The position numbers and the translations under genes are program-made. The notes beneath the pieces were generated by a model. It did not search any database. It was not told the DNA's origin and saw nothing but the letters and a program-made list of their open reading frames with translations. Of a stretch of DNA of 64,000 nucleotides, positions 1 through 52,449 are shown piece after piece. The stretch spans positions 94,048-158,047 of the forward strand of contig CAVQYQ010000004.1 of NCBI GenBank assembly GCA_963718195.1, given 5' to 3'. The stretch comes from an uncultured delta proteobacterium. Lineage in GTDB: Bacteria; Desulfobacterota; Desulfobulbia; Desulfobulbales; Desulfocapsaceae. The stretch's first letter is position 1. Every line of letters starts with the position of its first letter.

Positions 1-426
1 AGATTTTTCCTGATTGTTTTTCTGCCGCAAGGCTACTTCCTTCTCTTTGGCCCGTCGCTCGACTTCTCTATCTCCTGCGACTCTCAGGCTGCGAGGCACT
101 GCCACATCAATCTGGGCTGTACAGGGTTCACAAACCTCGCGTGGACAATCGGTAATTTCCCAGCATGGAGCATAACGAAGAAGCTTTTTAATGCCCGGTA
201 TGGAAATACCTTCATCATGTATCATCTTCCTGATACATCCTATCCAGATAATATTATTCTGGGAGAAGATACGGCGATTACCATTACGAGCCGGTTTAAC
301 GAGCCCTTCATCCTCATAGATCCGTAGTGTTCTCGGGTGCACATTCAGCAATTGTGCGGCCACACCAATCGAATAAACGGGTGTTTCTGCGGTAATTGGT
401 TGTATTTCCACTTTCTTTCTGGCCAT
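1..426 (-). CDS. MerR/HspR-like transcriptional regulator with Cys-rich C-terminal tail; 3' end runs off the window
   Basis: Absent from the ORF track because there is no stop inside the window. Manual minus-strand translation from the ATG at 424-426 gives MARKKVEIQPITAETPVYSIGVAAQLLNVHPRTLRIYEDEGLVKPARNGNRRIF...KKLLRYAPCWEITDCPREVCEPCTAQ..., with 142 codons open to position 1. It has a MerR-type HTH and is a clear paralogue of 2423..2833. Confidence 0.75.
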   Translation of the reverse strand, partial: MARKKVEIQPITAETPVYSIGVAAQLLNVHPRTLRIYEDEGLVKPARNGNRRIFSQNNIIWIGCIRKMIHDEGISIPGIKKLLRYAPCWEITDCPREVCEPCTAQIDVAVPRSLRVAGDREVERRAKEKEVALRQKNNQEKS

Positions 427-547
427 GTTTTGCCTCCGTGAGACAATCTACACATTGTGGCATGGATTGACAAGGAGGTAATTGGTGAACTGGCCCTCCC
501 CGCAAGGGGGGCTGACCAGTCCGAAGCGTAACGAGTTACCTTGGTGG

Positions 548-1780
548 TCTCAGTGCTCCTCACTGAGGTGACCGCGAAACAGCCGTTCTCCGGCAAGAAA
601 CAGAAAACCGCAGAACCCGATACCGCCAAGCGTTATCATCCATTCATGAAAGGTCGGCACATACGTAAACAACTCCGGATAATCAACCAACCCCATACCG
701 TGATAGTGAGGAACCAGCTGACCAATGATCACCAGGTCATAGCGCATGAAGAAAATGCCGATCATCCCCGCAACTGACGCCACAAACAATACCGGCATAT
801 TACGGCCGCGGACAGAAAGGATCAGAATAAACGGGATAATCATCCCAAGGCCTACCTCGCCAATCCAGAAATTCACCGAGTACGGTCCATTCAGCAACGA
901 CATCATCGCCGTATACTTGCCCGGAGGGTTACCGGTTATACCGGTTATCATCTTCCAACTCGTGAAAAACAGGATCACCGCCATCATCAAAGCACCAAGT
1001 TTGGCAACACTCTCCATCGAATGCTTCATCTCATCGCTCATCTTCCAGTTATTCGCTCGATACGCCAGATACGTGAAGAAGATTATGGCTACGCAACCGG
1101 ACATCGCTGCTGAGGTTATAAAATAGATCGGCATGTACGGTCCATGCCAGAATTCTCGACCGTTGAGAAGCCCAAACACCGCGCCCAGGTTCGAATGGGC
1201 AACAACACCGGTCAGAAGTCCGGCCAGACCAAACATGGTGGCTGTGCGGTGCTGGTCTTTCTGCAGCATCACAAACTCGATCATCATGAAAAAGAGATAC
1301 GCGCCGTAAAGCGTGCCCATCCACCAGATATTCGAGGTCGGGTTGGCTCCAACCACATTGCCAACCGGCATGCGCCAGGAGTTCTCGATCTCAAAGGCGA
1401 TGACCAGAAAACCGGCAACGATGGTCGCGATCGACAGGAACACCGCCCGCTTGGCGATCGGGTTAAAGTTCTTGAAACCAAAGACGTGACCAATTGACGA
1501 GACCATGCACAGTCCTGTCGAGGTCACAACAAAAAACACATAGGCTGCAATCAGTATGCCCCACGGGACATCGCGGGTAACACCGAATGTATGTTCATGC
1601 CCCACCGCTATCGAGTGAACACCCAGGGCCACCCCGGCAATGGTTAACAGACCGCACAGATACACCGCTGCTGAATATTTCCACGAGCTGGGAGAATCCA
1701 GACCCCCTTCCTGCGGCAGCACTCCTGCTAATAGATTGTTCATTGCTCTACTCCTTTCTCTTTGTTAATGCTCATCCGTT
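548..1780. repeat. Copy A of a 1,233-bp perfect direct repeat (partner 6162..7394, offset 5,614 bp)
   Basis: Direct comparison of both stretches, plus identical ORF translations in several frames. Identity covers the nrfD-like CDS, 2 nt beyond its stop and 37 nt upstream of its ATG (including the RBS). The flanks are unrelated. Confidence 0.95.
550..1743 (-). CDS. NrfD/PsrC-family polytopic membrane quinone-interacting subunit (copy 1)
   Basis: 397-aa multi-TM ORF with an NrfD-type N-terminal region (GHEHTFGVTRDVPWGILIAAYVFFVVTSTGLC). An AAGGAG RBS lies upstream of the ATG. It aligns along its full length with 2840..4021 and is identical to 6164..7357. Confidence 0.85.
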   Translation of the reverse strand: MNNLLAGVLPQEGGLDSPSSWKYSAAVYLCGLLTIAGVALGVHSIAVGHEHTFGVTRDVPWGILIAAYVFFVVTSTGLCMVSSIGHVFGFKNFNPIAKRAVFLSIATIVAGFLVIAFEIENSWRMPVGNVVGANPTSNIWWMGTLYGAYLFFMMIEFVMLQKDQHRTATMFGLAGLLTGVVAHSNLGAVFGLLNGREFWHGPYMPIYFITSAAMSGCVAIIFFTYLAYRANNWKMSDEMKHSMESVAKLGALMMAVILFFTSWKMITGITGNPPGKYTAMMSLLNGPYSVNFWIGEVGLGMIIPFILILSVRGRNMPVLFVASVAGMIGIFFMRYDLVIIGQLVPHYHGMGLVDYPELFTYVPTFHEWMITLGGIGFCGFLFLAGERLFRGHLSEEH

Positions 1781-1795
1781 ATTCTCTGGTCACGA

Positions 1796-1912
1796 TTAAC
1801 TTGATTGCTCAGCTTGCTTTTCGGATTTGAGAATATGTTTGATCTTCAGGTCATACAACGTATGAAGTATAGCCCCCCCCAACCAGAAGCAAAGAAACAG
1901 CAGACCGTCCAT
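1796..1912 (-). CDS. Small hydrophobic peptide (38 aa), hypothetical
   Basis: Manual translation gives MDGLLFLCFWLGGAILHTLYDLKIKHILKSEKQAEQSS. A GAGAGGAG RBS lies 5 nt upstream of the ATG at 1910-1912. It is below the ORF-track size cut-off, sits 52 nt upstream of nrfD copy 1 and contains the homopolymer at 1873..1880. Confidence 0.3.
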   Translation of the reverse strand: MDGLLFLCFWLGGAILHTLYDLKIKHILKSEKQAEQSS

Positions 1913-1973
1913 AATGACTCCTCTCATGACTTTTGTTGATATTAACATTTGCAAGATATCGTAAATTAAAAAC

Positions 1974-2002
1974 ATCGTATATTCTTACATTTTAATTGTC
2001 AA
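1974..2002 (-). promoter_or_regulatory. Candidate sigma70-type promoter for the small ORF / nrfD copy 1
   Basis: Minus strand reads TTGACA (1997..2002), a 17-nt spacer, then TACGAT (1974..1979), in an AT-rich intergenic region about 60 nt upstream of the 1912 start. Confidence 0.3.
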
Positions 2003-2347
2003 CTTATTTGTACATGTTGGTTAACTAAAAAACATTAACTGCGAGCGATTATTGCTTTTTTATCATGTTATATCATGTGCTTAAAAGGTATGAAGTATTT
2101 TCTAATTTTCAGGCGCATTTTGCTCCTTGGTGCATCGATGAACGTCGAGGGCTCAAATTGCGCCCACTTTGATGAGTTCAGGCTGAGTATTTCTCGACTT
2201 GCGTCGGCCTGCTGGCCACGGAGCGTTGGCAAGACTCTTCCTACGGCCTTTTCCAAAAGAGACACAGGATCGCTGGCCGTATCGACACGGGGATGGAAAT
2301 GAGCCGAGAAAACAGTGGTATATGATACGGACAGCGATAGGTGATGG

Positions 2348-2394
2348 ATAAAGAGAAACGCCCCCGGTCGATGGATGATACGACCGGGGGCGTT
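2348..2394 (-). terminator. Rho-independent terminator downstream of the MerR-like gene
   Basis: Perfect 14-bp stem AACGCCCCCGGTCG / CGACCGGGGGCGTT (2357..2370 and 2381..2394) with a 10-nt loop, followed on the minus strand by TCTCTTTAT. It lies about 30 nt after the stop at 2423. Confidence 0.7.
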
Positions 2395-2422
2395 GGTTGT
2401 TGAGGTGACTGCTGATGTTTAA

Positions 2423-2833
2423 TTAGACGTTTACAACATGCTTTTTCTTTCTTTGCGGAACTGGTTTTAACCTCACCACCTTGTTTGGCACGAGGGTATT
2501 GGAGAAAAACGCACTGCAACGCTGCCTTTTCTCAAACGGACAATCAATAATATTCCAGCAGGGAGTATAAGCCAGCAGCTTCTTGACCGCGTTGATGCTG
2601 ATTCCATGTTCATGAATCATCTCCCGCAGACATTCAATCCACTTGATATCGCGCATGGAATAATATCTCCACTTACCTCTTCTGGCTGGCCGTACTAAAC
2701 CGCTTTCTTCATAATTCCGGAGGGTACGCTGGTGAACTTCCAGAATTTTTGCTGCCATTCCGATAGTGAAGATTGGTTCATCTTGAGAGATCATTTCATA
2801 TCCTCCTTGACCACCTTCTGGATCAACATACAT
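2423..2833 (-). CDS. MerR/HspR-like transcriptional regulator with C-terminal Cys motif
   Basis: HTH region IFTIGMAAKILEVHQRTLRNYEESGLVRPARRGKWRYYS, and tail PCWNIIDCPFEKRQRC (C-x5-C-x7-C). The start at 2833 is 6 nt after the upstream nrfD-like stop, with GAGGAG 9 nt upstream. An alternative start at 2794 (MISQDEP) has a GGAGG RBS. Confidence 0.8.
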   Translation of the reverse strand: MYVDPEGGQGGYEMISQDEPIFTIGMAAKILEVHQRTLRNYEESGLVRPARRGKWRYYSMRDIKWIECLREMIHEHGISINAVKKLLAYTPCWNIIDCPFEKRQRCSAFFSNTLVPNKVVRLKPVPQRKKKHVVNV

Positions 2834-2839
2834 TCTCTA

Positions 2840-4021
2840 TTACTCCTCATCATGATGGGTAAATCGTTCACCAAGAAGATATTCGCCGACCAGGAAACAC
2901 ACGCCAAGCAGACCGATACCACTGAGAACAATCCCAAGTTCGGGGGCCGTGGGTGCGTAACTCAACTGTGCGGGCACCCCTTCATAACCTGAATATTGAG
3001 GAATTAACTGGCCAGCGACAACGAGATTCAATCTCGAGAAAAATTGTCCAACAAGAATCATCAGAGCCGCGGCAGATAGAGCCTGAATCGACTCGAGACG
3101 TGTCATGATCAGCAACACGAAGGGAAAGACAAGTCCGATACCGATTTCAAACAACCAGAAATTGGTGGACAATGATCCGGTCGTCAACAACTTTGCAGCA
3201 CTCCCGACAGCCTCTGAACCGACAGATGCGTTGATAAATTTCCAGGCGGTGGCAATGCCGATCAGAAAAATCATCAGTGCCATAACCTTTCCTGCAGTCT
3301 GCATACCGTCAAACGTTTTTCCTCCGAGCGGGCGCTTCCTCAGGGCGTATGCTCCATGGGTAAACAGGACAATGGCTGCAGCACCGGAGAGAAATGCAGA
3401 TGCGAGGAAAAAAATAGGCAGTTGGGAGCCATACCAGAACGGCCTGGAATTCAGGGAAGCGAACACCGACCCGAGGTTACTGTTTGCTAACAACTCAGTA
3501 ACAGCAGCACAAACACCGAGGATAACGGCAAGTTTATAGCGCCTAGTAATTATCAGGAACAGTTCTGCTAACATGATACCCACAGCCATACCGTAGAGGG
3601 TGCCCATCCACCAGATATTTGAAGTTGGATTTGGGTGGAGTATAACCCCCAGTGGCATCCGCCAGACATTTTCAATCTCAAGCCCGATGACGAGAAAGGC
3701 AGCAAGAATCGCAGCAATCGACAGCCAGACCATACGGTTGGCCAGTGGAGCAAGGTTATTACCACCGAAAAGATGGCTTAATGCTGCAAGACCGCACAAG
3801 CCGGTGGATATAATAGCAAAATATGCATAGGTACTGATTGCGATACCCCAGGGAACCCCTCGTGAAACACCAAAAGCATGGTGATGACCCACATAAAGAG
3901 CGTACAGTCCGCCCGAGATACCAATTGCTGTCATGGCGAGCATGACCCATAATAATAGATTGAATTGAGGCTTACTGATCTCCTGCCCCTGAACGACTGC
4001 TGTTTGATACTGAATAGACAT
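2840..4021 (-). CDS. NrfD/PsrC-family polytopic membrane protein (divergent paralogue)
   Basis: 393-aa multi-TM ORF with GHHHAFGVSRGVPWGIAISTYAYFAIISTGLC, aligning with the 397-aa copies. A GGAGG RBS lies upstream of the ATG at 4021. Confidence 0.85.
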   Translation of the reverse strand: MSIQYQTAVVQGQEISKPQFNLLLWVMLAMTAIGISGGLYALYVGHHHAFGVSRGVPWGIAISTYAYFAIISTGLCGLAALSHLFGGNNLAPLANRMVWLSIAAILAAFLVIGLEIENVWRMPLGVILHPNPTSNIWWMGTLYGMAVGIMLAELFLIITRRYKLAVILGVCAAVTELLANSNLGSVFASLNSRPFWYGSQLPIFFLASAFLSGAAAIVLFTHGAYALRKRPLGGKTFDGMQTAGKVMALMIFLIGIATAWKFINASVGSEAVGSAAKLLTTGSLSTNFWLFEIGIGLVFPFVLLIMTRLESIQALSAAALMILVGQFFSRLNLVVAGQLIPQYSGYEGVPAQLSYAPTAPELGIVLSGIGLLGVCFLVGEYLLGERFTHHDEE

Positions 4022-4066
4022 AATTCCTCCTTTGCTTCTGCCTGTGACGGTAAAATGTATTGCTTC

Positions 4067-4297
4067 TTACATTGCTTCATTGTTTAACGATTCCGGTTCC
4101 TGCATGGTGCCTTCCATATCTTTGTTGAAGAACAGGTATGCCAGGACAATTGGAGCAGAGAACGGACCGAGAACGATAAAAAGAGCGAGACAGAGCGAGA
4201 ACCAGAACCCCTCGACTATCTTCTCTCGACAGCTCACCAGTGAACCCAGGCTGATCCTGTTAAATGCTTTTCTTGTTTCAAGATATGTTGCAGCCAT
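4067..4297 (-). CDS. Small membrane protein (76 aa), hypothetical
   Basis: The internal Met of the 117-aa track ORF is preceded by a GAGGAGG RBS (MAATYLETRKAFNR...). There is one strongly hydrophobic segment, FWFSLCLALFIVLGPFSAPIVLAYLFF. The gene ends 45 nt upstream of the nrfD paralogue. Confidence 0.45.
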   Translation of the reverse strand: MAATYLETRKAFNRISLGSLVSCREKIVEGFWFSLCLALFIVLGPFSAPIVLAYLFFNKDMEGTMQEPESLNNEAM

Positions 4298-4682
4298 GAT
4301 GACCTCCTCGTGGGTTGATTGCTGATTATCTTTACTCTTGATAAAGCAAGCGATATGCCAACCTTTCAGATCATTTAAGCAAATAATTAATAAATTTATA
4401 AAATACTGATATAACTGCAATTAAATAAATATTTTTGTTTTAATAACAAGAAAGACGGAACAGGATTTCCAAATACTTTTACCCCAGAGGACGCAATATG
4501 CGTCTTGAGGTATAACCAGTGAGGCGAATCTTGCGCCTTGTTGGTTTAAGGAGCATATTAGTTGTTATACTAAATAGTTATGGATAAACATGGGGGAGGC
4601 AATAACCAACAGCAGCTATTGTCAAGGCCAGCGAATCATCGACGAACTGCAAAAACTACATAATTTCAATATGTTATTGGCT

Positions 4683-4711
4683 GCGAAAAGAGAGGGCGCA
4701 GAACACGCCCT
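4683..4711 (-). terminator. Candidate terminator after the cytochrome c gene
   Basis: Stem AGGGCG / CGCCCT (4693..4698 and 4706..4711) with a 7-nt loop, followed on the minus strand by CTCTTTTC. Confidence 0.45.
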
Positions 4712-4840
4712 ATAACGCGAGATTACGTGGGTCTGTTTCCGACCTGCTGGAGACGAAGAAATGTAAGAGGGATGAAAAGATGCTGGAAGGTCGAAATGAT
4801 GGGCAGACTGCTCATCATTTCGACCTTCTAGGAAGAACGT

Positions 4841-5269
4841 TTAGTGACCGCCCCCAGCTTCCCCGGGCGAGTCACCACGGAGCAACCGAGCATGGCCCAG
4901 AACGCCAATATGACAAGAGGTACAGCGGGTATTTGAAGCAAATGCAGTATCGCCATCATGGCAGGCACCGCAATAATTGCCCTCGTAAAGCGATTCCATG
5001 TTAAAATCATCTGCTTCCTGGGCGACTCCTGCTTCCATTTCGAACAGGTCATCATGACAGGATTCACAATCGAGGTCCTGCTCCATGGTGTGTGTCTTGT
5101 GATTGAATATGACGGCTTTAACCGGCTTTGTCCAGACAATTGGTGCTTCCGGGCCATAGGTGTCCTCATCATAAGGCTCCTGCTCTTCAGCAGGCTGATT
5201 TGAAGCCGAAATGGCAACAAAGCTGAACGTGGCCAGCCCCAGGATGATTATCATTACTATTTTATTCAT
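4841..5269 (-). CDS. Periplasmic triheme c-type cytochrome (cytochrome c7/c3-like)
   Basis: Three CxxCH motifs (CESCH, CGACH, CTSCH) plus FNHKTH. Signal peptide MNKIVMIIILGLATFSFVAISA. The start at 5269 is chosen because a GGGAGAG RBS lies 5 nt upstream; the track ORF starts at 5284. Confidence 0.85.
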   Translation of the reverse strand: MNKIVMIIILGLATFSFVAISASNQPAEEQEPYDEDTYGPEAPIVWTKPVKAVIFNHKTHTMEQDLDCESCHDDLFEMEAGVAQEADDFNMESLYEGNYCGACHDGDTAFASNTRCTSCHIGVLGHARLLRGDSPGEAGGGH

Positions 5270-5346
5270 TATGCTCTCCCACAATCCCGCGATAGTTAAG
5301 ATTCACGTATTGACATTTTCTCTGGTAAATGAATGACTCCATACAA

Positions 5347-6102
5347 TTATGCATTTGTATAGAATACGTTTGGCAACGCACCGGCTTCTTGACGCAGCAC
5401 CCAGACAATGGTTTCCGGCGCATGTACCAGCGCAAATACCCGACTGTTATTATCACTTAAATCTCCGAACACTCTGACATCGGCAGGACATGCATCAGAA
5501 CATGCTGTTGTCGTTTCACCCTTTGACAGTTTGGTATCATAACAGAAATTACATTTATCAACGGCCCGGGTCTCTTCGTCAAAATATCTGGCATTATAGG
5601 GACAGGCAGTCATACAGGTTTTGCAGCCGATACAACGACCCTCATTCATCACCACAATACCGGTTTTTTCATCTTTCCAGGTTGCAGTTGTCGGACAAAC
5701 ACGAACACAGGGAGGCCTGTTACAGTGGTTGCAGAGAACCGGCATAAATATGGTTTCAAACCCGCCTCCGACAATATCTCTGCGCTTTTCAAGAATGGTC
5801 GTCCTGAACCCGTAAGCAGGAACGTGATTGGTCTCAACACATGCTTCCTTGCATAACTCACAATCAATGCAGAACCGTTCGCGGATAACCATGGAATAGT
5901 GAGGGCTATACGGATATTTACCCACTTTTGGAACGACCCCTTCAGCCATGACATTTTTGGCTGAAGTTAAAGAAAGAACCGTACCGCCAAGGTAGACACC
6001 GGTAACAGCCAAACCAATTTTCAACAGGGACCTTCTTTCTTTTGAGGGAAGAACATCTGGACTTTCTGGTTTCATTTTTTCAAGCTCTTCAATCTTCATC
6101 AC
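5347..6102 (-). CDS. Tat-exported 4Fe-4S ferredoxin-type subunit (NrfC/PsrB/DmsB-like)
   Basis: Twin-arginine motif KERRSLLKIG followed by a hydrophobic stretch. Multiple Cys clusters: CIDCELCKEAC, CNHCNRPPCVRVCP, CIGCKTCMTACP. Confidence 0.9.
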   Translation of the reverse strand: MMKIEELEKMKPESPDVLPSKERRSLLKIGLAVTGVYLGGTVLSLTSAKNVMAEGVVPKVGKYPYSPHYSMVIRERFCIDCELCKEACVETNHVPAYGFRTTILEKRRDIVGGGFETIFMPVLCNHCNRPPCVRVCPTTATWKDEKTGIVVMNEGRCIGCKTCMTACPYNARYFDEETRAVDKCNFCYDTKLSKGETTTACSDACPADVRVFGDLSDNNSRVFALVHAPETIVWVLRQEAGALPNVFYTNA

Positions 6103-6161
6103 TGGCTCTCAAAGTATAGTTACAGCCGATTATGGCCATTTTAAAATTTCATTGTTCCTTT

Positions 6162-7394
6162 TCTCAGTGCTCCTCACTGAGGTGACCGCGAAACAGCCGT
6201 TCTCCGGCAAGAAACAGAAAACCGCAGAACCCGATACCGCCAAGCGTTATCATCCATTCATGAAAGGTCGGCACATACGTAAACAACTCCGGATAATCAA
6301 CCAACCCCATACCGTGATAGTGAGGAACCAGCTGACCAATGATCACCAGGTCATAGCGCATGAAGAAAATGCCGATCATCCCCGCAACTGACGCCACAAA
6401 CAATACCGGCATATTACGGCCGCGGACAGAAAGGATCAGAATAAACGGGATAATCATCCCAAGGCCTACCTCGCCAATCCAGAAATTCACCGAGTACGGT
6501 CCATTCAGCAACGACATCATCGCCGTATACTTGCCCGGAGGGTTACCGGTTATACCGGTTATCATCTTCCAACTCGTGAAAAACAGGATCACCGCCATCA
6601 TCAAAGCACCAAGTTTGGCAACACTCTCCATCGAATGCTTCATCTCATCGCTCATCTTCCAGTTATTCGCTCGATACGCCAGATACGTGAAGAAGATTAT
6701 GGCTACGCAACCGGACATCGCTGCTGAGGTTATAAAATAGATCGGCATGTACGGTCCATGCCAGAATTCTCGACCGTTGAGAAGCCCAAACACCGCGCCC
6801 AGGTTCGAATGGGCAACAACACCGGTCAGAAGTCCGGCCAGACCAAACATGGTGGCTGTGCGGTGCTGGTCTTTCTGCAGCATCACAAACTCGATCATCA
6901 TGAAAAAGAGATACGCGCCGTAAAGCGTGCCCATCCACCAGATATTCGAGGTCGGGTTGGCTCCAACCACATTGCCAACCGGCATGCGCCAGGAGTTCTC
7001 GATCTCAAAGGCGATGACCAGAAAACCGGCAACGATGGTCGCGATCGACAGGAACACCGCCCGCTTGGCGATCGGGTTAAAGTTCTTGAAACCAAAGACG
7101 TGACCAATTGACGAGACCATGCACAGTCCTGTCGAGGTCACAACAAAAAACACATAGGCTGCAATCAGTATGCCCCACGGGACATCGCGGGTAACACCGA
7201 ATGTATGTTCATGCCCCACCGCTATCGAGTGAACACCCAGGGCCACCCCGGCAATGGTTAACAGACCGCACAGATACACCGCTGCTGAATATTTCCACGA
7301 GCTGGGAGAATCCAGACCCCCTTCCTGCGGCAGCACTCCTGCTAATAGATTGTTCATTGCTCTACTCCTTTCTCTTTGTTAATGCTCATCCGTT
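6162..7394. repeat. Copy B of the 1,233-bp perfect direct repeat (partner 548..1780)
   Basis: See copy A. The junctions differ outside 6162 and 7394. Confidence 0.95.
6164..7357 (-). CDS. NrfD/PsrC-family membrane subunit (copy 2, identical to 550..1743); first gene of the nrfD / Fe-S / cytochrome c operon
   Basis: 397-aa translation identical to copy 1. It ends 61 nt upstream of the Fe-S gene on the same strand. Confidence 0.85.
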   Translation of the reverse strand: MNNLLAGVLPQEGGLDSPSSWKYSAAVYLCGLLTIAGVALGVHSIAVGHEHTFGVTRDVPWGILIAAYVFFVVTSTGLCMVSSIGHVFGFKNFNPIAKRAVFLSIATIVAGFLVIAFEIENSWRMPVGNVVGANPTSNIWWMGTLYGAYLFFMMIEFVMLQKDQHRTATMFGLAGLLTGVVAHSNLGAVFGLLNGREFWHGPYMPIYFITSAAMSGCVAIIFFTYLAYRANNWKMSDEMKHSMESVAKLGALMMAVILFFTSWKMITGITGNPPGKYTAMMSLLNGPYSVNFWIGEVGLGMIIPFILILSVRGRNMPVLFVASVAGMIGIFFMRYDLVIIGQLVPHYHGMGLVDYPELFTYVPTFHEWMITLGGIGFCGFLFLAGERLFRGHLSEEH

Positions 7395-7904
7395 CAAACT
7401 AAAAAACCTGACCCTGGCCGTCACCTGCGAAGAATTGACGGTCAATAGTCAGGATAACAATTCATAATAATGGTGCTGAAATTACGCTGTACCGGAAATG
7501 TTTCAAACATCGTTTTATCGAGGAATATTTGTCGCGCATTGATCCTTGTCTGTCCAAGGTCGGAAACCACCTGCGATCATTGTTGGATCAACCATGGAAA
7601 ATCACCAGCAATGTACTCCAAAAACAAAAATACGTACACCAAAAAAGAGGTACCACAAATGTCCTTTTGAACCGTATTACAGAACCTTCAAGTAATAAAT
7701 GTATTAATTAAATATGTACCACAAATGAGATTACTAAGGTAGCTCACCTCTGTCAAGAATTTTGGTGCAAATGCACACAAATTTTATTTTTCACCTTATT
7801 ATGAGGTGTCAGACAGCGTAAATTGCATACCACAATGCAGTATTTAGACTTATTTGTTGTCAGGCATGATGTGCTGTTTTCCAGGTTGAGTTTCTTGCAG
7901 GATA

Positions 7905-7940
7905 GATACAATTCCTGATACAATTCCTGTTACAATTCCT
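7905..7940. repeat. Three tandem 12-bp repeats (GATACAATTCCT, GATACAATTCCT, GTTACAATTCCT)
   Basis: Read directly. The repeats lie in the 650-bp divergent intergenic region, 67 nt upstream of the ATG at 8007. Confidence 0.9.
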
Positions 7941-8006
7941 CGGCAAACGATGAAAAGTAGGATAAAATAATATCATTATTATATTTCAGACGATTCAGGC
8001 GTATCA

Positions 8007-8480
8007 ATGGAACGACATAACCAGCCAATTACAGTCGTTGGGGTCCCTCTCAAGGGGATTATCACAACACTCGTTTTCCTGACGCTACTATTTGCTGTGT
8101 TCGATCCTTTTGATTTTCAATCGACCATCAGTGACATGGTCTCCTCTTCTCAGGAAAAGGAGCAAGATGCAGATCAATCCAGGCAGGAAAACAGTATCGT
8201 AGCGACTCCGGAGATGATTTCAAAGGCCGCAAATGAGATCAGGGCAGAGAAGATAGCCGATTACGAACAAACTGAAAACGTTTCTCCGACGGATCAGTTC
8301 TTCTATATCGTTGAACTTTCAAATGGAGGGGATATCGAGGCTTCAGATGTTACCATTGAACCGGATAGAGTGACGATTGTTTCACAAAGCGGCATTGAGA
8401 CAATCATCCCGCGGACCACGATCAAAAATATTCGTCGCTACAAGCTTCCAGACCAGCCACAGCCACAATCCTCACCATAA
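8007..8480 (+). CDS. Hypothetical membrane-anchored protein
   Basis: 157-aa ORF with one N-terminal TM segment (GIITTLVFLTLLFAVF) and an acidic/polar remainder. I do not recognise a family. Confidence 0.4.
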   Translation: MERHNQPITVVGVPLKGIITTLVFLTLLFAVFDPFDFQSTISDMVSSSQEKEQDADQSRQENSIVATPEMISKAANEIRAEKIADYEQTENVSPTDQFFYIVELSNGGDIEASDVTIEPDRVTIVSQSGIETIIPRTTIKNIRRYKLPDQPQPQSSP

Positions 8481-8695
8481 AGCACCGTAGCCAGGGACCC
8501 CATATCTTCTTCTTGTCTATTTCGATATATCATTGGCCTTGTTAAGGCTTCAATAGTTCGAGTCCTGGGAATTTAAATCATCAGGGTATCACCCTGCCGT
8601 TTCAATCGTACCATGCAGATGTCATAGTCATTTTCTGTAGCTATAACCACACTGCTGTGATAGAGTCACCGCCTCTCAATAAGCGGTTACTTTTT

Positions 8696-8730
8696 GAGCC
8701 ACTTGCAAAATGCCCTTTTGCAAAAGACTC
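8696..8730. repeat. Short palindromic member of the GAGCCnnTTGCAAAA repeat family
   Basis: GAGCCACTTGCAAAATG CCC TTTTGCAAAAGACTC. The two arms are inverted repeats. 21 nt are identical to 56321..56341, and it is near-identical to the reverse complement of 15929..15954. Confidence 0.7.
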
Positions 8731-9666
8731 TTTTGTTTAGCCTTTTTCTGTTACTTTTTCTGGAGCCCACTCTTGCCGCTGGATCTTAAAAAATGGCTTC
8801 CCGCCCTGAGCCTCACAACAGCAATGGTTCTCTGGGCAAGCTCATTTATTGCCCTGAAGCTTGCTTTTCAGGGTTACTCCCCGATGGTCGTTATCTGGGG
8901 ACGTATGGTGATCGGCAGCCTCTGCTTTGTCTTTTTCTATAACCAGCTGCGCTCGGTGTCATTCAGGCGTACCGACCTGAAGTATCTGTTTTTCATGGGG
9001 ATCTGTGAACCATGTATCTATTTCATCTTCGAGGCCAAAGCGCTCGAGTTGACCACCGCTTCCCAGGCGGGTCTGATTACCTCCATGTTCCCCCTGATGG
9101 TTGCGCTTGGCGCCTATTTGGTCCTCAAGGAAACAATCACGCGACGAACGCTTCTCGGTTTCTCCATAGCAATCAGCGGTGCCTGCTGGCTCAGTTTAGG
9201 CGGAGAAACGTCTGCAAGTGCACCAAATCCGCCACTGGGCAATTTTCTGGAATTTCTGGCGATGGTTGCAGCAACCGGTTACACCCTGTCGTTAAAACAC
9301 CTGACTGCACGCTATTCCCCGATCTTTCTCACTGCCTTCCAGTCGTGGATCGGCGCGATCTTCTTTTCTTTTTTCCTGCTATCTCCTGAAACAAACATAC
9401 CAACCAAATTCCCACTTACTCCGACACTGGCGGTTATCTACCTGGGCAGTTTTGTCACGCTGGGAGCGTACCTGCTCTACAATTTTGGTGTCAGCAGGAT
9501 ACCGGCTAACAAGGCGTCAGCTTATGTCAACCTTATCCCGGTTTTTACAGTAATCATGGGCTTTTTTATTCTCGGAGAAACCTTCACCGTCACCCAGTAT
9601 TGCGCTTCGACACTGGTCCTTTTGGGTGTCTATATCAGCCAGCGCAAACCCCGAGAGCTGGACTGA
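8710..9666 (+). CDS. DMT-superfamily (EamA-type) transporter
   Basis: About 10 TM segments in a two-EamA-repeat architecture. The start codon is uncertain because the first 21 nt lie inside the repeat element at 8696..8730. Confidence 0.8.
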   Translation: MPFCKRLFCLAFFCYFFWSPLLPLDLKKWLPALSLTTAMVLWASSFIALKLAFQGYSPMVVIWGRMVIGSLCFVFFYNQLRSVSFRRTDLKYLFFMGICEPCIYFIFEAKALELTTASQAGLITSMFPLMVALGAYLVLKETITRRTLLGFSIAISGACWLSLGGETSASAPNPPLGNFLEFLAMVAATGYTLSLKHLTARYSPIFLTAFQSWIGAIFFSFFLLSPETNIPTKFPLTPTLAVIYLGSFVTLGAYLLYNFGVSRIPANKASAYVNLIPVFTVIMGFFILGETFTVTQYCASTLVLLGVYISQRKPRELD

Positions 9667-12390: not shown

Positions 12391-13944
12391 ATGCGGATCG
12401 GGGTGCCAAAAGAAACTCGCCAAGGCGAGCATCGTGTCGCAACAACGCCAGAAGCAGCCGTGCTGCTGCAGAAGCTTGGCTACCAGATAGCTATAGAATC
12501 AGGAGCCGGGACAGCTGCAAAATTCACCGACGACAATTACCGCGATGCAGAAGTGGCGATCGTAGATGACGTCACATCACTTTATGAAAAGAGCGATATC
12601 ATTCTCAAGGTCAGAGCTCCGGAAATCGATACTGCTGGTGGCGTTAACGAAACTGAGCTGCTGCGCGAAGGCCAGACCCTTATCAGTTTTATTCAGCCGG
12701 GACAGAATGAAGAATTGATGGGGGAGCTGGCAGCAAAGAACGTATCAGTTCTCGCCATGGACTCCATCCCTCGAATATCAAGAGCCCAGAAAATGGACGC
12801 CTTGAGTTCAATGGCCAACATCGCCGGTTATCGTGCCGTCATCGAAGCTGCCCAGCATTTTGGCAGATTCTTTACCGGCCAGATTACCGCTGCAGGGAAA
12901 ATACCGCCGGCCAAGGTGTTAGTGATCGGGGCAGGGGTTGCGGGTCTATCAGCCATTGGTGCAGCCAAGAGCATGGGGGCAATCGTCCGCTCGTTCGACA
13001 CGCGTCCCGAGGTGAAGGAACAGGTTGAATCGATGGACGCAGAGTTCCTGCTGCTCGATTTTGCCGATGAGGACGGCAGTGGTGAGGGCGGCTACGCCAA
13101 GGTGATGAGCGATGAGTTTATCAAAGCGGAGATGGCCCTGTTTGCCGAGCAGGCAAAAGAAGTTGATATCATCATTACCACTGCACTGATTCCCGGAAGA
13201 CCGGCTCCCGAGTTGATCATGGAGGATATGGTAAAGAGCATGAAAGAAGGCAGTGTCATTGTTGATCTGGCGGCAGAGATGGGTGGCAACTGCAAACTCA
13301 GTGAGGCGGACAAGGTAGTCGTCAAACACGGAGTTACCATCATCGGTTATACCGACTTGCCGTCACGGCTTGCTACCCAGTCCAGCCAGCTTTATGCCAC
13401 AAACCTCCGTCACTTGCTGACTGAGCTGACTCCAGATAAGAATGGTGAGCTGGTGATCAATATGGAGGATGAAATTATCCGCGGGGCTACCGTCATCAAC
13501 AAAGGAGAAATAACCTGGCCACCGCCGCCGCCGAAACTCTCAGCGGCTCCCGCCAAAAAACCACCTGCACCAATCATCGAAAAGGCCGAACCTGAAAAGA
13601 AGAGTGCTCTGGGAACGCTCATTGCCGTCGGAGTCGGCGCCCTTGCCCTCCTTGGGATGGGAAGTGTTGCCCCCCCTGAGTTCATGTCTCACTTCACGGT
13701 TTTTGTTCTGGCCTGTGTCATCGGCTACATGGTTATCTGGAATGTAACTCCAGCGCTGCACACGCCGTTGATGAGCGTGACCAATGCTATCAGTTCCATC
13801 ATTATCATTGGTGCACTCCTCCAGATATCATCGGATAGAGGTTTTATTATCTTTCTTGCCGGTATTTCAGTCCTGATCACCAGCATCAACATCTTCGGTG
13901 GATTTGCAGTAACTGCGCGAATGCTCTCGATGTTCAGAAAATAG
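12391..13944 (+). CDS. pntA: NAD(P) transhydrogenase subunit alpha
   Basis: 517 aa with an alanine-dehydrogenase/PNT N-terminal domain, a VIGAGVAGL Rossmann motif and C-terminal TM helices. AAGGAG RBS. Confidence 0.95.
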
Positions 13945-13954
13945 GAGAAATCAG

Positions 13955-15352
13955 ATGTCACAGGGTATCGTTACAGCATCATATATCGGCGCAACCATCC
14001 TGTTCATCCTTGCGCTGGGGGGCCTGAGCAACCAGGAAAGTGCCAGGCGTGGAAACCTCTATGGTATGCTCGGAATGGCGCTGGCATTGCTGGCAACCTT
14101 AATCGGTATTGTTTCGGACAACTATCTTATCCTCATTCTCGGTCTTCTCGTTGGAGGAACAATTGGGCTGATCCTTGCAAAAAAGGTGGAGATGACCCAG
14201 ATGCCGGAGCTGGTTGCAATACTGCACAGTCTGGTCGGACTGGCTGCGGTGATTGTTGGTTTCGCCAACTTTATGGACCACACGGTTGTCATGACAGGCG
14301 TTGACAAAACAATCCACGATGTGGAAACATATCTCGGCATCCTGATCGGGGGGTTGACGTTTTCCGGTTCCATTGTTGCATTTCTCAAGCTCAGTGCCAA
14401 GATCAGCGGCAAGCCGCTGCTGCTACCGGCTCGCCACTGGCTCAATCTTGGTTTACTGGTATTGAGTATCTTGCTCTGTTTTGCATTTATCAATCAGTCT
14501 GCTGCAGGAGGAGGTACGCTCCCGCTTCTCCTGATGACCCTCATTTCACTTGCCTTCGGTGTCCACATGGTGATGGCAATTGGCGGAGCAGACATGCCGG
14601 TCGTTGTCTCCATGCTCAACAGCTACTCGGGATGGGCGGCTGCTGCCACCGGTTTTATGCTGAGCAACAACCTGCTGATCGTTGTCGGCGCCCTGGTAGG
14701 TAGTAGTGGTGCAATTCTCAGTTTCATCATGTGCCGCGCAATGAACAGAAAATTCATTGCTGTTATTGCAGGGGGATTTGGTACATCTGGAGGTGAAACC
14801 GTAGCCGGTGCGGAAGGGGAGGAAGGTGAAATCATCGCAGTTGAAGCAATGGAAGTCGCAGACCTACTCCTTGATGCCAAAGAAGTTATGATCATTCCGG
14901 GATACGGCATGGCTGTCGCCCAGGCTCAACACACGGTGAATGATATAACCCGCAAGCTGCGAGAAAAAAAGATCAATGTCCGGTTTGGTATCCATCCGGT
15001 TGCCGGTCGCATGCCCGGGCACATGAACGTATTGCTCGCGGAAGCCAAAGTCCCTTACGATATCGTCTTTGAACTCGACGAGATTAACGACGACTTCCCG
15101 AACGTCGATGTATCAATTGTGATCGGGGCAAATGATATCGTCAATCCCGCGGCCCAGGAAGTTCCTGACAGTCCAATAGCCGGGATGCCTGTGCTTGAAT
15201 GCTGGAAAGGAAACACCACTGTTGTCCTGAAACGCTCCATGGCCACCGGTTACGCTGGCGTCTCAAACCCGCTTTTCTACAAGGAAAACACAAGAATGTT
15301 ATTTGGTGATGCCAGGGACAGTCTGGAAGCGGTGCTGAAACAGCTCCAATAA
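13955..15352 (+). CDS. pntB: NAD(P) transhydrogenase subunit beta
   Basis: 465 aa with an N-terminal TM bundle and a C-terminal NADP(H) domain ([20 protein letters not shown]). Confidence 0.95.
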
Positions 15353-37852: not shown

Positions 37853-39187
37853 CTATTGATTTTTCTTAAAGGCTGTCTTGGGGAAAAAACAATATGGGCA
37901 CTCATCTGGTGGCATTTCATCATAGTGGACGTAACCACAGATCCTGCACCTCCAGACACTGCCAATTATCGATGCCTGCTGCCCATCGCCTGGATCGTGC
38001 TCCCGATGGAGCGGCAGGTCCTCCAGCAGGGGAAGGCTCGGCTGATACTCTTTGAGCAGATAATCCGCCAGGATGATTCGTTGAATTTCGCTGGTGCCCT
38101 CATAGATCCTCAGGAGGCGAACATCGCGCAGCAATTTTTCAATGGGAAACATCTTGGTGTAACCGTATCCACCAAAAATCTGTAAGGCCTCGTTGACCAC
38201 CTCCAGAGCTGTCTCTGTCGCATAGAGTTTGCTGATCGAAGCACTGACTCTTCCGTCCTGCTGTTGGTCCGAATCCCAAGCTGCTTTCCAGGTCAGCAAG
38301 CGGGCTGTTTCCACCTTCTGATACATCTCCGCCAGCTTAAACTGAATTGCCTGAAAAGCACTGATTGCCATACCGAAAGCACGCCTTTTTTTCGCGTAAT
38401 CAAGTGCATATTCCGTCGCCGCTCTGGCTGCTCCGACGCCAAAGCTGCCAATGATTGGCCGGGTGCGGGCAAAGGTCTTCATTGCAAGCACAAATCCTTC
38501 GCCAGGCAAAGCCAAAACATTTTCCTTTGGCACCCGTACATCTTTGAAATTAACCCCTACCGTGTTGGAACAGCGCTGACCCATTTTGGGAATAGCACGT
38601 CCGATTGTCACCCCGGGCCATTTTGTCTCTACCAGGAACGCGCAGATTCCCTGATGCTGGCTTTCAGGGTCTATGGACGCAAAGACCGACAGGTAATCAG
38701 CGACACCGCCGTTGGTAATCCAATATTTTGTGCCGTTAAGAAGATAGTCATCACCTGCAGCCTCAGCCCTGCAGCGAATGCCAGCCACATCAGAACCCAT
38801 TAATGGTTCAGATGTGGCAAAAGCGGCTAATTTGAAATCCCTGGCGATTTGAGGGAGGTATTTCTGTTTGGCATAGCTGTTGGTGGAGAGCAAGATCGGC
38901 TCCATTCCCAGCGAACTGTCGAAGATCGATGTCGCCAGCCCCGGACAAGCTGCGGCTATTTCTTCGGTAATCAAAGACGACTCTAACAAGCTCAGCCCTT
39001 GACCGCCAAATTCTTTTGGAATATCGCTGCCTATCATCCCGGCATCAAAAGCCTTGCGTATCACTTTCAGGGGAAGTTCATCTTTTTCATCGTAGTACCA
39101 GGCAACAGGTAAAACTTCTTTCAGAGCAAAAATGCGCGCCTTTTGCTGCAGGTCCAGTTGATCTTGGGTCAAACGGAAATTGAGCAT
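37853..39187 (-). CDS. Acyl-CoA dehydrogenase fused to a C-terminal rubredoxin-type domain
   Basis: Full ACAD core (TSEPLMGSD, YWITNG, YEGTSEIQR), then a linker of about 35 aa and WRCRICGYVHYDEMPPDECPYC (CxxC...CxxC). Confidence 0.85.
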   Translation of the reverse strand: MLNFRLTQDQLDLQQKARIFALKEVLPVAWYYDEKDELPLKVIRKAFDAGMIGSDIPKEFGGQGLSLLESSLITEEIAAACPGLATSIFDSSLGMEPILLSTNSYAKQKYLPQIARDFKLAAFATSEPLMGSDVAGIRCRAEAAGDDYLLNGTKYWITNGGVADYLSVFASIDPESQHQGICAFLVETKWPGVTIGRAIPKMGQRCSNTVGVNFKDVRVPKENVLALPGEGFVLAMKTFARTRPIIGSFGVGAARAATEYALDYAKKRRAFGMAISAFQAIQFKLAEMYQKVETARLLTWKAAWDSDQQQDGRVSASISKLYATETALEVVNEALQIFGGYGYTKMFPIEKLLRDVRLLRIYEGTSEIQRIILADYLLKEYQPSLPLLEDLPLHREHDPGDGQQASIIGSVWRCRICGYVHYDEMPPDECPYCFFPKTAFKKNQ

Positions 39188-49749: not shown

Positions 49750-49861
49750 ACGAAACAGAGACAATAATCAAATAGAACGCCTGAGCTGAAATACAGAGGA
49801 TTTCAGCTGAATCTTTGCGAATATCAGGTAGTTTATTTCTTTGCAAAACAGGAGGAGATGT

Positions 49862-51424
49862 ATGGATGTTGTAATGTTGTCCCGATTGCAGTTTGCCTTT
49901 ACAATCATGTTTCATTACATATTTCCACCCCTGACCATTGGTCTCGGGGTGATTATTGCCTATCTTGAGACCAGATACTATCTCACGAGAAAGCCGGTCT
50001 TCGCTATCGCCACCCAATTCTGGACCAAAATCTTTGTCTTAAACTTCGCCATAGGAGTCTCCAGCGGCATCGTCATGGAGTTCCAGTTCGGCACCAACTG
50101 GGCGACCTATTCCCGTTTTGTCGGTGATGTTTTCGGTAGCGCTCTTGCTGCAGAAGGTATATTTGCATTTTTCCTTGAATCCGGCTTCCTGGCAATTGTC
50201 GCATTCGGTAGAGAAAAGGTAAGTGCTGGTCTCTATCTTTTCAGCATGTATATGGTGGCCCTGGGCTCAATCTTTTCCTCCATATGGATTGTGGTCGCCA
50301 ACAGCTGGCAGCAGACACCGGCCGGACACCACATCGTCGATATACTCCGACCAGACTCCTCAGCAGGCGGCTCCGGCGAAATGATTCCCTGGGTCGTCGA
50401 TGGAGTCGTTCAGCGAAGGGCGGAAATCGTAGATTTCCTGGCCATGGTCTTCAACCCGTCAACGGTGCAGCGCCTGAGCCATGTCCTTCTGGGCTGTGCA
50501 GCCGTTGGCGGCTTTTTCGTACTGAGTATTTCCGCCTACTATATACTGAAAGACAAGCATCATGAGTTTGCCCGCCATTCTTTTAATGGGGCACTCCTTT
50601 TCAGCCTTGCAGCCTCACTTGGCCTTGCCATTAATGGTCACACCCAGGCCCAAGATGTTTATAGAAATCAACCGGCAAAACTCGCAGCCTTTGAAGGCCA
50701 TTATACAACCGGCCGCGCCGATTTAAATCTGGTCGGCTGGCCAAATGAACGCGAAGAGCGTATCGATTATGAGTTGAGTCTTCCCGGCGGTCTCAGCTTT
50801 ATGGTCTTTGATGATTTTACCTTCAGCAAACCCGTAGTCGGGCTTGACCGATTCAAACCAGAAGACCGGCCTCCCCTGCTGATTCCATTTTTTTCCTGGC
50901 GCCTGATGGTTGGCTTTGGCGGCCTAATGATTGTCCTCTGCACGGCTGGCCTCGTCTTCAATCTTAAAAAACAACTCGCCCAGAAACGTCCGCTCCTCTG
51001 GTCCTTTGTGTTTGCCATCGGCTTTGTCATGGTCGCAAACCAGAGCGGCTGGATAGCGGCCGAAGTTGGCCGACAGCCATGGACAGTCCATCCGCCGGTT
51101 ATCTGGAATGAGAGTGGCACCGATTTAGTCACCGCCGCCGATGGGTTGTATCAGTATGACGAAAGTCTTGGTTTACGAACAAGCAACTCATTCAGTGCGG
51201 CTGTCAGCGTTGAAGAGGCCAGGACGTCACTCATCCTTTTTGCTATTCTCTACGCTGCCCTGACAGCGGTTTGGATCATCGTGCTCGACAGAAAAATACG
51301 CATCGGTCCGGAACCTCTGCCGGCAGCTGCAGCTTCCGGGGGGACAGGTGTGGTGCAGGCGGCAACCGACAGGCAGCATGCCCGGTTGAGTGACAAAGAA
51401 AAAGACCAAGGAGGTGCATCGTGA
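49862..51424 (+). CDS. cydA: Cytochrome bd-type quinol oxidase subunit I
   Basis: [24 protein letters not shown]-terminus and [12 protein letters not shown]. The start is set at the ATG at 49862, preceded by AGGAGG; the track starts at a TTG at 49841. Confidence 0.9.
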
Positions 51425-52449
51425 GTTCTGAAATCCTCTGCATTGTCTGGTTTGTAATACTGAATATTCTGCTCATCGGCTATGCAATACTCGATGGCTT
51501 TGATCTCGGAGTCGGCATCCTGCATCCCTTTGTTGCAAAAACCGACCGGGAAAGACGACTGGTCATGAACAGTATCGGGCCGCTCTGGGATGGCAACGAA
51601 GTGTGGCTTGTGACGTTTGGCGGGGCATTGTTCGCCATGTTCCCGAATGGTTACGCCTCGATTTTCAGTGCATTTTATCTCCCCTTTGTCCTGCTTCTTT
51701 TCGCCCTCATTTTTCGGGCAGTATCTCTGGAATTCCGTTCAAAACGAACGAACACCTTCTGGCGCAACTTCTGGGACCTGCTCTTTTTCATCGGATCCAC
51801 CATGGCGACATTCCTGTTTGGCGTAGCGGTTGGTGCAACTATGCAGGGATTGGAACTCTCCGAGCTGGGAGACTATCAGGGGACCATGCTTGATCTTCTT
51901 TCTGGTTTCAGTGTGAGTGTGGGGTTGTTTAGCGTGGCACTTTTTGCCATGCACGGGGCCATTTATCTGTATTTAAAAACTGAAGGGGAATTGCAGCAAC
52001 GTCTTTTCACCTGGATGAAAGGAACCTATTATCTCTATCTCGCGCTCTTTATTATCGTTACCCTGTGGTCGGTTTTTCTGGTGCCTGCATCATTGCAGCA
52101 TTTTGGTGACTATCCACTCCTTTGGCTGGTGCCTCTAATCAATGTTCTGGCAATCGCCAATATTCCCAGGGCAATAGCCAGAAAAAAACCTCTTTATGCC
52201 TTTTTTAACAGTTGCTTTACTATTGCAGCGCTGGTTTTCCTGTTCAGTGCCGCTATTTTTCCTGATCTTTTACCTGCATCAAACAATTCAGCATTTTCCA
52301 TTACAATATTCAACGCTGCATCCAGCATGCTGACCCAGAAGATCGGACTCGTTATCGTAGCACTTGGAATGCCGATGGTTCTATCCTATACCATTCTGAT
52401 ATACTGGACATTCCGGGGGAAAGTTGAATTGGGTGAGGGCAGCTATTAA
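51421..52449 (+). CDS. cydB: Cytochrome bd-type quinol oxidase subunit II
   Basis: 342-aa polytopic protein with a GTG start overlapping the cydA stop by 4 nt, and a typical CydB N-terminus (LDGFDLGVGIL...GPLWDGNEVWL). Confidence 0.9.
   Translation: MSSEILCIVWFVILNILLIGYAILDGFDLGVGILHPFVAKTDRERRLVMNSIGPLWDGNEVWLVTFGGALFAMFPNGYASIFSAFYLPFVLLLFALIFRAVSLEFRSKRTNTFWRNFWDLLFFIGSTMATFLFGVAVGATMQGLELSELGDYQGTMLDLLSGFSVSVGLFSVALFAMHGAIYLYLKTEGELQQRLFTWMKGTYYLYLALFIIVTLWSVFLVPASLQHFGDYPLLWLVPLINVLAIANIPRAIARKKPLYAFFNSCFTIAALVFLFSAAIFPDLLPASNNSAFSITIFNAASSMLTQKIGLVIVALGMPMVLSYTILIYWTFRGKVELGEGSY

Follow-up and report, generated by a model that had tools for sequence, protein, structure and literature searches.

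A nine-gene cluster of Desulfobulbales with two nrfD-merR units and an NrfC-cytochrome c7 module, most likely encoding a self-regulated respiratory complex

The subject of this work is a gene cluster at one end of a 64,000-nucleotide stretch of DNA from an uncultured delta proteobacterium of the Desulfocapsaceae (order Desulfobulbales; GenBank assembly GCA_963718195.1, contig CAVQYQ010000004.1, forward-strand positions 94,048 to 158,047), which we call the window and number from its first letter. A preliminary description of the first 4,021 nucleotides had pointed out two genes for NrfD-like membrane proteins, each followed by a gene for a cysteine-rich regulator of the MerR/HspR type, and had proposed a module that senses membrane redox state or the quinone pool rather than a respiratory complex. 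What had been observed holds up for the most part, what had been concluded from it only in part. Window positions 1 to 4021 cover the downstream two-thirds of a cluster of nine genes, all on one strand, which extends to 7394. Read 5′ to 3′ on the minus strand, the genes are nrfD-A′, a gene for an NrfC-like ferredoxin, a gene for a c7-type cytochrome, smB, nrfD-B, merR-B, smA, nrfD-A, and merR-A. Since an NrfC-type iron-sulfur (Fe-S) protein and a c7 cytochrome are encoded just upstream of the nrfD-merR pairs, the cluster most likely specifies a respiratory complex that regulates itself, and not a sensor that stands alone.

The two pairs are as they had been drawn. nrfD-A (550 to 1743; this and all other genes of the cluster on the minus strand) and nrfD-B (2840 to 4021) encode NrfD-family membrane subunits of 397 and 393 amino acids (aa), which are 39% identical to each other and score 118 and 86 bits with PF03916 (gathering score, 25.8). 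merR-A (1 to 426), co-oriented with nrfD-A, is cut by the window edge at 142 of its 149 codons (the full-length protein, P0121, has 149 aa), and merR-B (2423 to 2833) encodes 136 aa; both products are minimal MerR/HspR-like regulators that match PF13411 at 61 to 62 bits (62 for MerR-A; cut-off, 21.6). The gaps first given, 6 nucleotides (nt) between nrfD-B and merR-B and 123 nt between nrfD-A and merR-A, are correct. Each nrfD gene has a small membrane open reading frame (ORF) at its 5′ side, as had also been seen: smA (1796 to 1912) encodes 38 aa with a single helix and smB (4067 to 4297) encodes 76 aa. Both are conserved, tblastn finding smA in about 44 related loci, the distant locus L089 included, and smB in about 35. 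The strong terminator reported after the B pair holds up as an intrinsic terminator at 2394 to 2348 on the minus strand, with a 14-bp G+C stem and a U run, a folding energy of -30 kcal/mol, and a z-score of -8.6. To judge from a related 3872-bp contig (L084), the gene past window position 1 is XdhC-like.

Beyond their family, the NrfD proteins are not close to any named type. The best NCBIfam match of nrfD-A is HmcC, at 69 bits with a cut-off of 550, and the NrfD (49 versus 348) and DsrP (42 versus 350) equivalogs are likewise not reached. The AlphaFold2 (AF2) model of NrfD-B (pLDDT 81.6, pTM 0.86) has about 10 transmembrane helices, and in Foldseek its fold is closest to ActC (6btm_C, TMq 0.79) and ActF, followed by PsrC (2vpw_C, TMt 0.68). 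On the cytoplasmic side the model offers short loops and a tail of about 10 residues; by the positive-inside rule, both NrfD termini are predicted to be cytoplasmic and the cytoplasmic surface to be small. Invariant residues of NrfD-B lie mostly in predicted periplasmic loops and helix ends, and it is on this side that quinone and a partner of the NrfC type would be expected to bind.

The claim that did not survive is that the pairs lack an Fe-S partner. Upstream on the same strand lie an NrfC-type gene, a c7 gene, and a third nrfD. The Fe-S subunit (5347 to 6102, 251 aa) is NrfC/DsrO/TtrB-like, with a twin-arginine signal (KERRSLLK), four Cys clusters, and 86 bits with PF13247; the TtrB, NrfC, and DsrO models give 155 to 161 bits, all below their equivalog cut-offs. 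The c7-type triheme cytochrome (4841 to 5284, 147 aa) has a signal peptide and three CxxCH motifs and scores 57 bits with PF14522 and 75 bits with TIGR04257, above the cut-off of 40. Heading this nrfD-nrfC-c7 operon is nrfD-A′ (6164 to 7357, 397 aa), which is nucleotide-identical to nrfD-A.

How widely this arrangement is kept was followed by a scan of one genome per species, which gave 80 loci onto which the window proteins were mapped by tblastn. MerR-A and MerR-B have hundreds of homologues each, and every source with an organism name belongs to the Desulfobulbales. For 112 of the 122 MerR genes with enough upstream sequence in the species-representative loci, the next gene upstream, in the same orientation, is an nrfD (42 pairs of type A and 70 of type B), far beyond chance; the adjacency on which the preliminary description rested is therefore a real feature of the order. 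Desulforhopalus singaporensis, Desulfopila sp. IMCC35008, and about 80 species representatives have the cluster in full. Two layouts recur. Desulfocapsaceae have [nrfD-A′]-nrfC-c7-smB-nrfD-B-merR-B-smA-nrfD-A-merR-A, and Desulfobulbaceae and Desulfurivibrionaceae have smA-nrfD-A-merR-A, then a divergent gene of about 800 codons, and nrfC-c7-(smB)-nrfD-B-merR-B. The product of the divergent gene has three or four PAS domains, a sigma-54 AAA+ activator domain, and HTH_8. Orthologues are linked to the cluster in at least 33 related loci and not in this window; here the gene would lie past position 1.

The Fe-S protein and the cytochrome travel with the pairs: among the 43 related loci that span at least 15 kb, 37 carry both nrfC and c7. 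The nrfC gene has no nrfD in front of it in 37 of 48 species, which leaves nrfC-c7 with no membrane partners nearby except those encoded by the merR-linked nrfD genes. Because the copy that does precede nrfC in this window encodes a protein 100% identical to NrfD-A, and because in most species there is no further copy, the merR-linked NrfD is best taken as a structural subunit and not as a degenerate sensor. This is what tells against setting the system apart from respiratory complexes, as had been done. Of the earlier proposal, the part that stands is the pairing itself, together with the invariance of the cysteines (below); the part that does not is the exclusion of a respiratory role.

nrfD-A and nrfD-A′ are the bulk of an exact 1233-nt direct repeat (548 to 1780 and 6162 to 7394) that takes in nrfD-A and 37 nt upstream of it. 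One could ask whether the second nrfD-merR pair is no more than a repeat misjoined during assembly, and the exactness of the repeat would suit such an origin, as would the short contig L084 (ENA contig NODE_7105, 3872 bp), in which the gene upstream of nrfD-A′ runs directly into nrfD-A-merR-A. Independent genomes show the same two-copy layout, however, with a few single-nucleotide polymorphisms between their copies (94 to 99.5% nucleotide identity), and the isolate D. singaporensis has it with diverged copies. We therefore reject an assembly artefact as the origin of the repeat and consider a misjoin very improbable indeed. In L084, the homologue of window gene 8007-8480 is joined to nrfD-A-merR-A-XdhC, and nrfC, c7, and unit B are skipped; this could be either a repeat collapsed in short-read assembly or a natural deletion by recombination between the nrfD-A copies, and collapse explains it better. 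Within genomes, nucleotide identity of the repeat copies is 98.7 to 99.5% in three loci (L004, L005, and L007) and 94 to 97% in three others (L021, L023, and L024). The nrfD-A copies are 94 to 100% identical within genomes and about 78% identical between distant genomes, and the upstream copy is usually closest to the merR-linked copy of the same genome; in three genomes the copies have diverged (73 to 88%). This likeness points to gene conversion or concerted evolution.

The regulators end in the tails PCWNIIDCPFEKRQRC and PCWEITDCPREVCEPC, whose shared cysteines are present as claimed, as is the shared cysteine of the WI(E/G)C helix. Four cysteines are invariant in both paralogues (C68, C92, C98, and C106 in MerR-B, spaced C-x23-C-x5-C-x7-C); C68 lies in helix 3, in W-I-x-C, and C92 in P-C-W/Y/H, and MerR-A has one cysteine beyond the four. 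All complete MerR sequences (83 loci) have the four, the seven missed by the strict pattern being a C-H or W-T-K-C variant or ending with their contig. Because these residues are invariant, it is a reasonable inference that they make a metal-, cluster-, or thiol-based site, and the PCW-x4-C-x6-8-C tail looks like a sensory metal or cluster site. In the AF2 model of MerR-B, residues 20 to 95 are well defined (pLDDT 87 to 95); beyond helix 4 there are only two four-residue helices, which carry the cysteines, and no coiled-coil helix. Among solved structures, GlnR and TnrA match best, both by profile (4r4e, E = 4e-14) and by fold (TMt 0.79 to 0.89). The recognition helices encoded by the merR genes of the two units are near-identical.

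These regulators have relatives in a very large family of HspR-like MerR proteins. When 1.84 billion cluster representatives were searched exhaustively with a profile, 11,892 matched at E < 1e-3 and 1328 at E < 1e-10, the latter set also taking in other MerR proteins. Most of the top 148 representatives (P0241 to P0388) have the PCW-x4-C-x6-8-C tail, many of them have a second PCW...C..C..Y unit, and some relatives with the Cys-Trp (CW) tail are fused to a response-regulator receiver domain. For the distant representatives, contigs were often too short for an informative gene context.

Given that HspR (NF047375) is the best NCBIfam match of both regulators (68.9 bits for MerR-A and 67.1 for MerR-B; equivalog cut-off, 105), they might be ordinary HspR-like repressors of a heat- or envelope-stress response that stand beside nrfD by chance, with the four cysteines as a structural zinc site in place of the missing coiled coil. 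Close homologues with the same Cys tail adjoin ftsH, not nrfD, in L065 to L069 and in L075; a unit of two small membrane proteins and FtsH recurs near the cluster in L001, L022, and L085; and the conserved -35 element of smA, CTTGACA, resembles the HspR operator half-site CTTGAGT. Yet scores of 67 to 69 fall well short of 105, the cluster has no chaperone genes, and the pairing with nrfD is kept in 92% of cases. Two paralogues, each with its own nrfD paralogue across the order, argue for an NrfD-specific function, and we regard the reading as ordinary stress repressors as improbable.

The small proteins in question are two paralogous membrane proteins of about 71 to 78 aa, followed by FtsH, that recur near the cluster or directly after merR-nrfD and share the motif GLW..C..GG...GGP...GWFKAV (for example, at L001:19043-20399, L022:19624-20092, L085:2983-5461, and L075:9953-12277). 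In a different clade, the gene for a Cys-tailed MerR protein stands immediately before ftsH, and nrfD is absent.

The two units differ in their promoters. Upstream of smB by 63 nt, at 4345 to 4360 on the minus strand, is a sigma-54 promoter (TGGCATATCGCTTGCT, TGGCAT-N5-TTGCT; the consensus compared was TGGCAC-N5-TTGCW, -24 GG/-12 GC), and a sigma-54-like site stands upstream of smB in 31 of 31 loci. Such a promoter was also considered for unit A (3 of 41 loci, the level of chance) and for nrfC (6 of 48) and was rejected for both. Unit A has a sigma-70-type promoter instead, at 1974 to 2002 on the minus strand (TTGACA, a 17-nt spacer, TACGAT), which would serve smA-nrfD-A-merR-A. Its -35 context, CTTGACAA, is conserved in all lineages and in some species is followed after 6 to 8 nt by TGTCAA, TTGCAA, or TTACAA, an arrangement that resembles the HspR operator. 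The perfect palindrome of this kind, TTGACA-N7/8-TGTCAA (HAIR-like), occurs only in some species (L022 and L063); the strict HAIR-like pattern had only 2 matches across the loci, and TTGACAA by itself is not enriched in the window.

Both units share a second element, the palindrome GRCGCA-N3-TGCGYC, with 5 matches in the window versus 0.46 expected and 168 matches in 1.23 Mb (83 loci), nearly all of them upstream of the two nrfD-merR units. A spacing of N5 was tried and gave counts at chance level; N3 fits. At unit A, two copies (2112 to 2126 and 2150 to 2164) lie about 110 to 160 nt upstream of the smA promoter. At unit B, a proximal pair (4490 to 4504 and 4523 to 4537) lies 130 to 180 nt upstream of the sigma-54 promoter, with an A+T-rich stretch between, and a degenerate distal palindrome, GGCGTG-TTC-TGCGCC (4693 to 4711, also a weak terminator-like hairpin after the cytochrome gene), lies farther upstream; in most related loci this copy is found with at most one mismatch, about 170 nt upstream of the proximal pair. 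Three palindromes at enhancer distance make a classical enhancer layout. This layout favours the linked sigma-54 activator as the protein that binds them, and we lean slightly toward it over the MerR proteins. The MerR proteins are kept as candidates because palindromes also stand at the sigma-70 promoter and the recognition helices of the two regulators are near-identical.

We imagine, then, a modular NrfCD-cytochrome c7 complex with two NrfD modules, each with its own four-cysteine (Cys4) feedback regulator, and give this about an even chance of being right as a whole. The Tat-exported NrfC-type protein, with its four [4Fe-4S] clusters, and the triheme cytochrome would form a periplasm-facing electron-transfer module. 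NrfD-A and NrfD-B would be paralogous 10-helix quinone/quinol subunits, each with a tiny membrane partner (SmA or SmB), and the products may assemble into a quinone:cytochrome c oxidoreductase like Hmc, DsrJOP, or alternative complex III (ACIII), with the two NrfD types either exchangeable as membrane modules or paired as ActC and ActF are. Each NrfD module would be its own transcription unit, ending in a minimal MerR protein that acts as an operon-internal feedback regulator; its Cys4 site, whether Fe-S cluster, metal site, or thiol switch, might report redox or cofactor status and so tune the amount of the NrfD module. Unit B would in addition be driven from its sigma-54 promoter, the enhancer presumably served by the linked PAS-domain activator, and unit A from its sigma-70-type promoter, with its likeness to an HspR operator half-site in the -35 region. 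The 6-nt gap between nrfD-B and merR-B, and a strong terminator that comes only after merR-B, favour this arrangement.

Several findings do not sit easily with it. At unit A the gap is 123 nt and contains a hairpin and a weak promoter-like site, so that merR-A may be transcribed alone. The unit-A palindromes are more than 100 nt upstream of a sigma-70-type promoter, where neither candidate binder fits neatly. The Cys tail of the MerR-B model is only moderately confident (pLDDT 56 to 72). Finally, nrfD-merR occurs with no nrfC-c7 within 6 to 10 kb in L025, L040, L071, L077, and L089; as far as gene order goes, the pair can thus occur independently of the Fe-S module.

The hairpin in the spacer between nrfD-A and merR-A (427 to 549) is G+C rich, lies at about 487 to 522, and has no U run; alternatively, it may be a processing or stability element. 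The promoter-like site, TTGTCA-17-TAGATT, lies 3′ of it, at 473 to 445.

Loci with nrfD-merR but no nrfC-c7 nearby bear on a pure sensor role for NrfD. In L089, smA-nrfD-A-merR-A stands with no nrfC-c7 within 6 kb, stand-alone nrfD-merR units are also found in L025 and L040, and L085 has the reverse order (merR, nrfD, two small proteins, FtsH), again without nrfC. One can envision NrfD as the signal input, with the Cys4 MerR protein docked on its cytoplasmic face; the state of the quinone pool would decide whether the regulator is held there, released, or redox-switched, and nrfC-c7 would be an optional add-on. In favour of such a scheme, the adjacency of nrfD and merR (112 of 122) is tighter than the linkage to nrfC, and the nearest relatives of the regulators, HspR and GlnR/TnrA, are each regulated by a protein of their own operon. 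On the other hand, NrfD-A is identical to the copy in the nrfC operon, and most nrfC-c7 operons depend on the merR-linked nrfD genes. The invariant periplasmic loops of NrfD-B argue for a normal function that faces a partner or quinone, and the predicted cytoplasmic surface of NrfD, where a regulator would have to dock, is tiny. It seems to us that a stand-alone sensor is doubtful, though a serious contender, and the self-regulated complex remains our preferred reading.

Outside the lineage of the window, the transcripts of the two units carry hairpins of their own. In 17 to 19 related loci, the leader of unit A contains a hairpin whose hexaloop, CCGCCA, is invariant, and in 37 the transcript of unit B contains one to three hairpins whose hexaloop, UGGCGG, is likewise invariant. 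They occur in loci of the Desulfobulbaceae and Desulfurivibrionaceae type and in L089 (for example, at L071:6253-6284, L071:8525-8556, and L089:4429-4460), and their stems show compensatory changes in 9 of 10 and 10 of 10 pairs. Because the hexaloops are exact complements, they suggest a candidate kissing contact between the mRNAs of the two nrfD-merR units. Hairpins with complementary leader loops are absent from the window and its Desulfocapsaceae lineage, and Rfam gave no known RNA family in window positions 1 to 9000 or in the L089 leader.

A further reading takes the Sm-NrfD-MerR trio as the conserved core, a line from the quinone pool to transcription, with the units of sister lineages coupled at the RNA level by kissing loops. 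Here the single-CW tail of an effector-less MerR protein would read the redox state of the NrfD protein of its own operon, by docking or by electron exchange, as a membrane counterpart of glutamine synthetase with TnrA/GlnR and of DnaK with HspR. We think it unlikely. If it were true, the large family of CW-tailed MerR proteins would amount to redox or metal sensors of a new class.

In many anaerobic respiratory complexes, among them Psr, Nrf, Hmc, Dsr, Qrc, and ACIII, NrfD-type subunits form the heart that couples to quinone and possibly translocates ions, and to our knowledge it is largely unknown how a cell chooses which NrfD module to make. The cluster offers a compact, order-wide case in which two NrfD paralogues would share one Fe-S/cytochrome module, each with a four-cysteine regulator, and in which one of the two units appears to be under the control of sigma-54 and a PAS-domain activator. 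It also brings to light a large, uncharacterised MerR/HspR-like family with the PCW-x4-C-x6-8-C tail. The cultured hosts, among them Desulforhopalus singaporensis, Desulfopila, Desulfogranum japonicum, and Desulfogranum mediterraneum, make these hypotheses testable.

The rest of the window is ordinary chromosome. It includes a PntAB transhydrogenase (12391 to 15352), a cytochrome bd quinol oxidase (cydA at 49841 to 51424; the next ORF is at 51421 to 52449), and an acyl-CoA dehydrogenase fused to a rubredoxin-like domain (37853 to 39187).

How do the regulators compare with known members of their family? HspR is the MerR-family heat-shock repressor that is encoded by the last gene of the actinobacterial dnaK operon and is regulated by DnaK. 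The window regulators are like it in being small, in having a DNA-binding domain for which it is the best NCBIfam match (67 to 69 bits), and in the place of their genes, HspR being last in the operon that it presumably controls; at the promoter of unit A, the conserved CTTGACA-N7/8-TGTCAA-like element has some likeness to the HAIR operator, CTTGAGT-N7-ACTCAAG. They differ in staying below the equivalog cut-off of 105 and in having no dnaK context, and the HspR sequence known to us has no four-cysteine tail. With GlnR/TnrA of the Bacillota they share the best profile and fold matches, the absence of a long coiled-coil helix, and a short C-terminal tail, which in GlnR/TnrA is a regulatory element contacted by glutamine synthetase. 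Here, however, the tail is Cys rich and unrelated in sequence, the TnrA model gives 17 to 24 against a cut-off of 140, and a membrane protein takes the place of glutamine synthetase as the partner in the operon.

SoxR, the [2Fe-2S] redox-sensing activator, is another MerR protein with a C-terminal Cys cluster and the obvious functional analogy for a Cys4 MerR protein. The resemblance does not extend to the score (17 bits with TIGR01950 versus 116.9), to the coiled coil, which the window regulators lack, or to the cysteines themselves: CX2CXCX5C in SoxR, C-x23-C-x5-C-x7-C here, with the first in helix 3. Nor is the 17-nt spacer of the unit-A promoter the overlong spacer of SoxR targets. More generally, MerR-B is without the long antiparallel coiled-coil helix of classical MerR activators (MerR, CueR, SoxR, and BmrR), and neither unit has their kind of promoter, unit A with a spacer of 17 nt rather than 19 to 20 bp and unit B being sigma-54 dependent. 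For the tail, the only match of two-unit relatives is to the uncharacterised two-CW domain NF045718, over the whole profile at 10 to 18 bits (cut-off, 35); the single-CW tails of the window give no match to it even at E = 10.

In agreement with the preliminary description, which knew of no such system, full-text literature searches found no paper linking NrfD to a MerR regulator and none on the two-CW domain, and searches on HspR in Desulfobulbaceae and on a sigma-54 regulon with NrfD gave nothing relevant; one apparent match, a paper on Geobacter and cobalt, proved to be false. The hmc operon of Desulfovibrio vulgaris, which encodes an NrfCD-containing redox complex, is followed by rrf1 and rrf2, and a Cys-containing regulator modulates hmc. 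Rrf2 belongs to a different fold family, so that the analogy may be taken as a lead only.

As for the complex itself, the comparison is with ACIII and other NrfD complexes. NrfD-B models as a 10-helix protein like ActC and ActF, and the cluster resembles ACIII in bringing together a pair of NrfD paralogues, an Fe-S protein of the NrfC type, a cytochrome with several haems, and small proteins of a single helix. The cluster has no molybdopterin-like ActB domain, pentahaem ActA, or monohaem ActE. From the Hmc, Dsr, and Nrf complexes it is set apart by NrfD proteins far below the HmcC, DsrP, and NrfD equivalog cut-offs, and from ACIII and the other NrfD complexes by its three predicted transcription units with interleaved regulators. 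Within the same order, cable bacteria and other Desulfobulbales have a dsrOhPh-tetrahaem locus, with an orphan NrfC-like protein, an NrfD-like protein, and a periplasmic multihaem cytochrome, which has been proposed as a link for electrons from quinone to the periplasm or as a candidate ACIII (PMC13047784, 2026). That locus, too, has a small single-helix protein; it is unlike ours in its O-P-tetrahaem order, in a tetrahaem rather than a c7 triheme cytochrome, in having one NrfD-like gene, and in that no MerR regulator is mentioned (PMC13047784). The parts of the cluster, then, belong to known families (NrfD, NrfC-like, c7, and MerR), and what appears to be new in comparison with these systems is the single-CW Cys4 minimal MerR protein, its fixed coupling to nrfD, and the regulatory layout of two modules.

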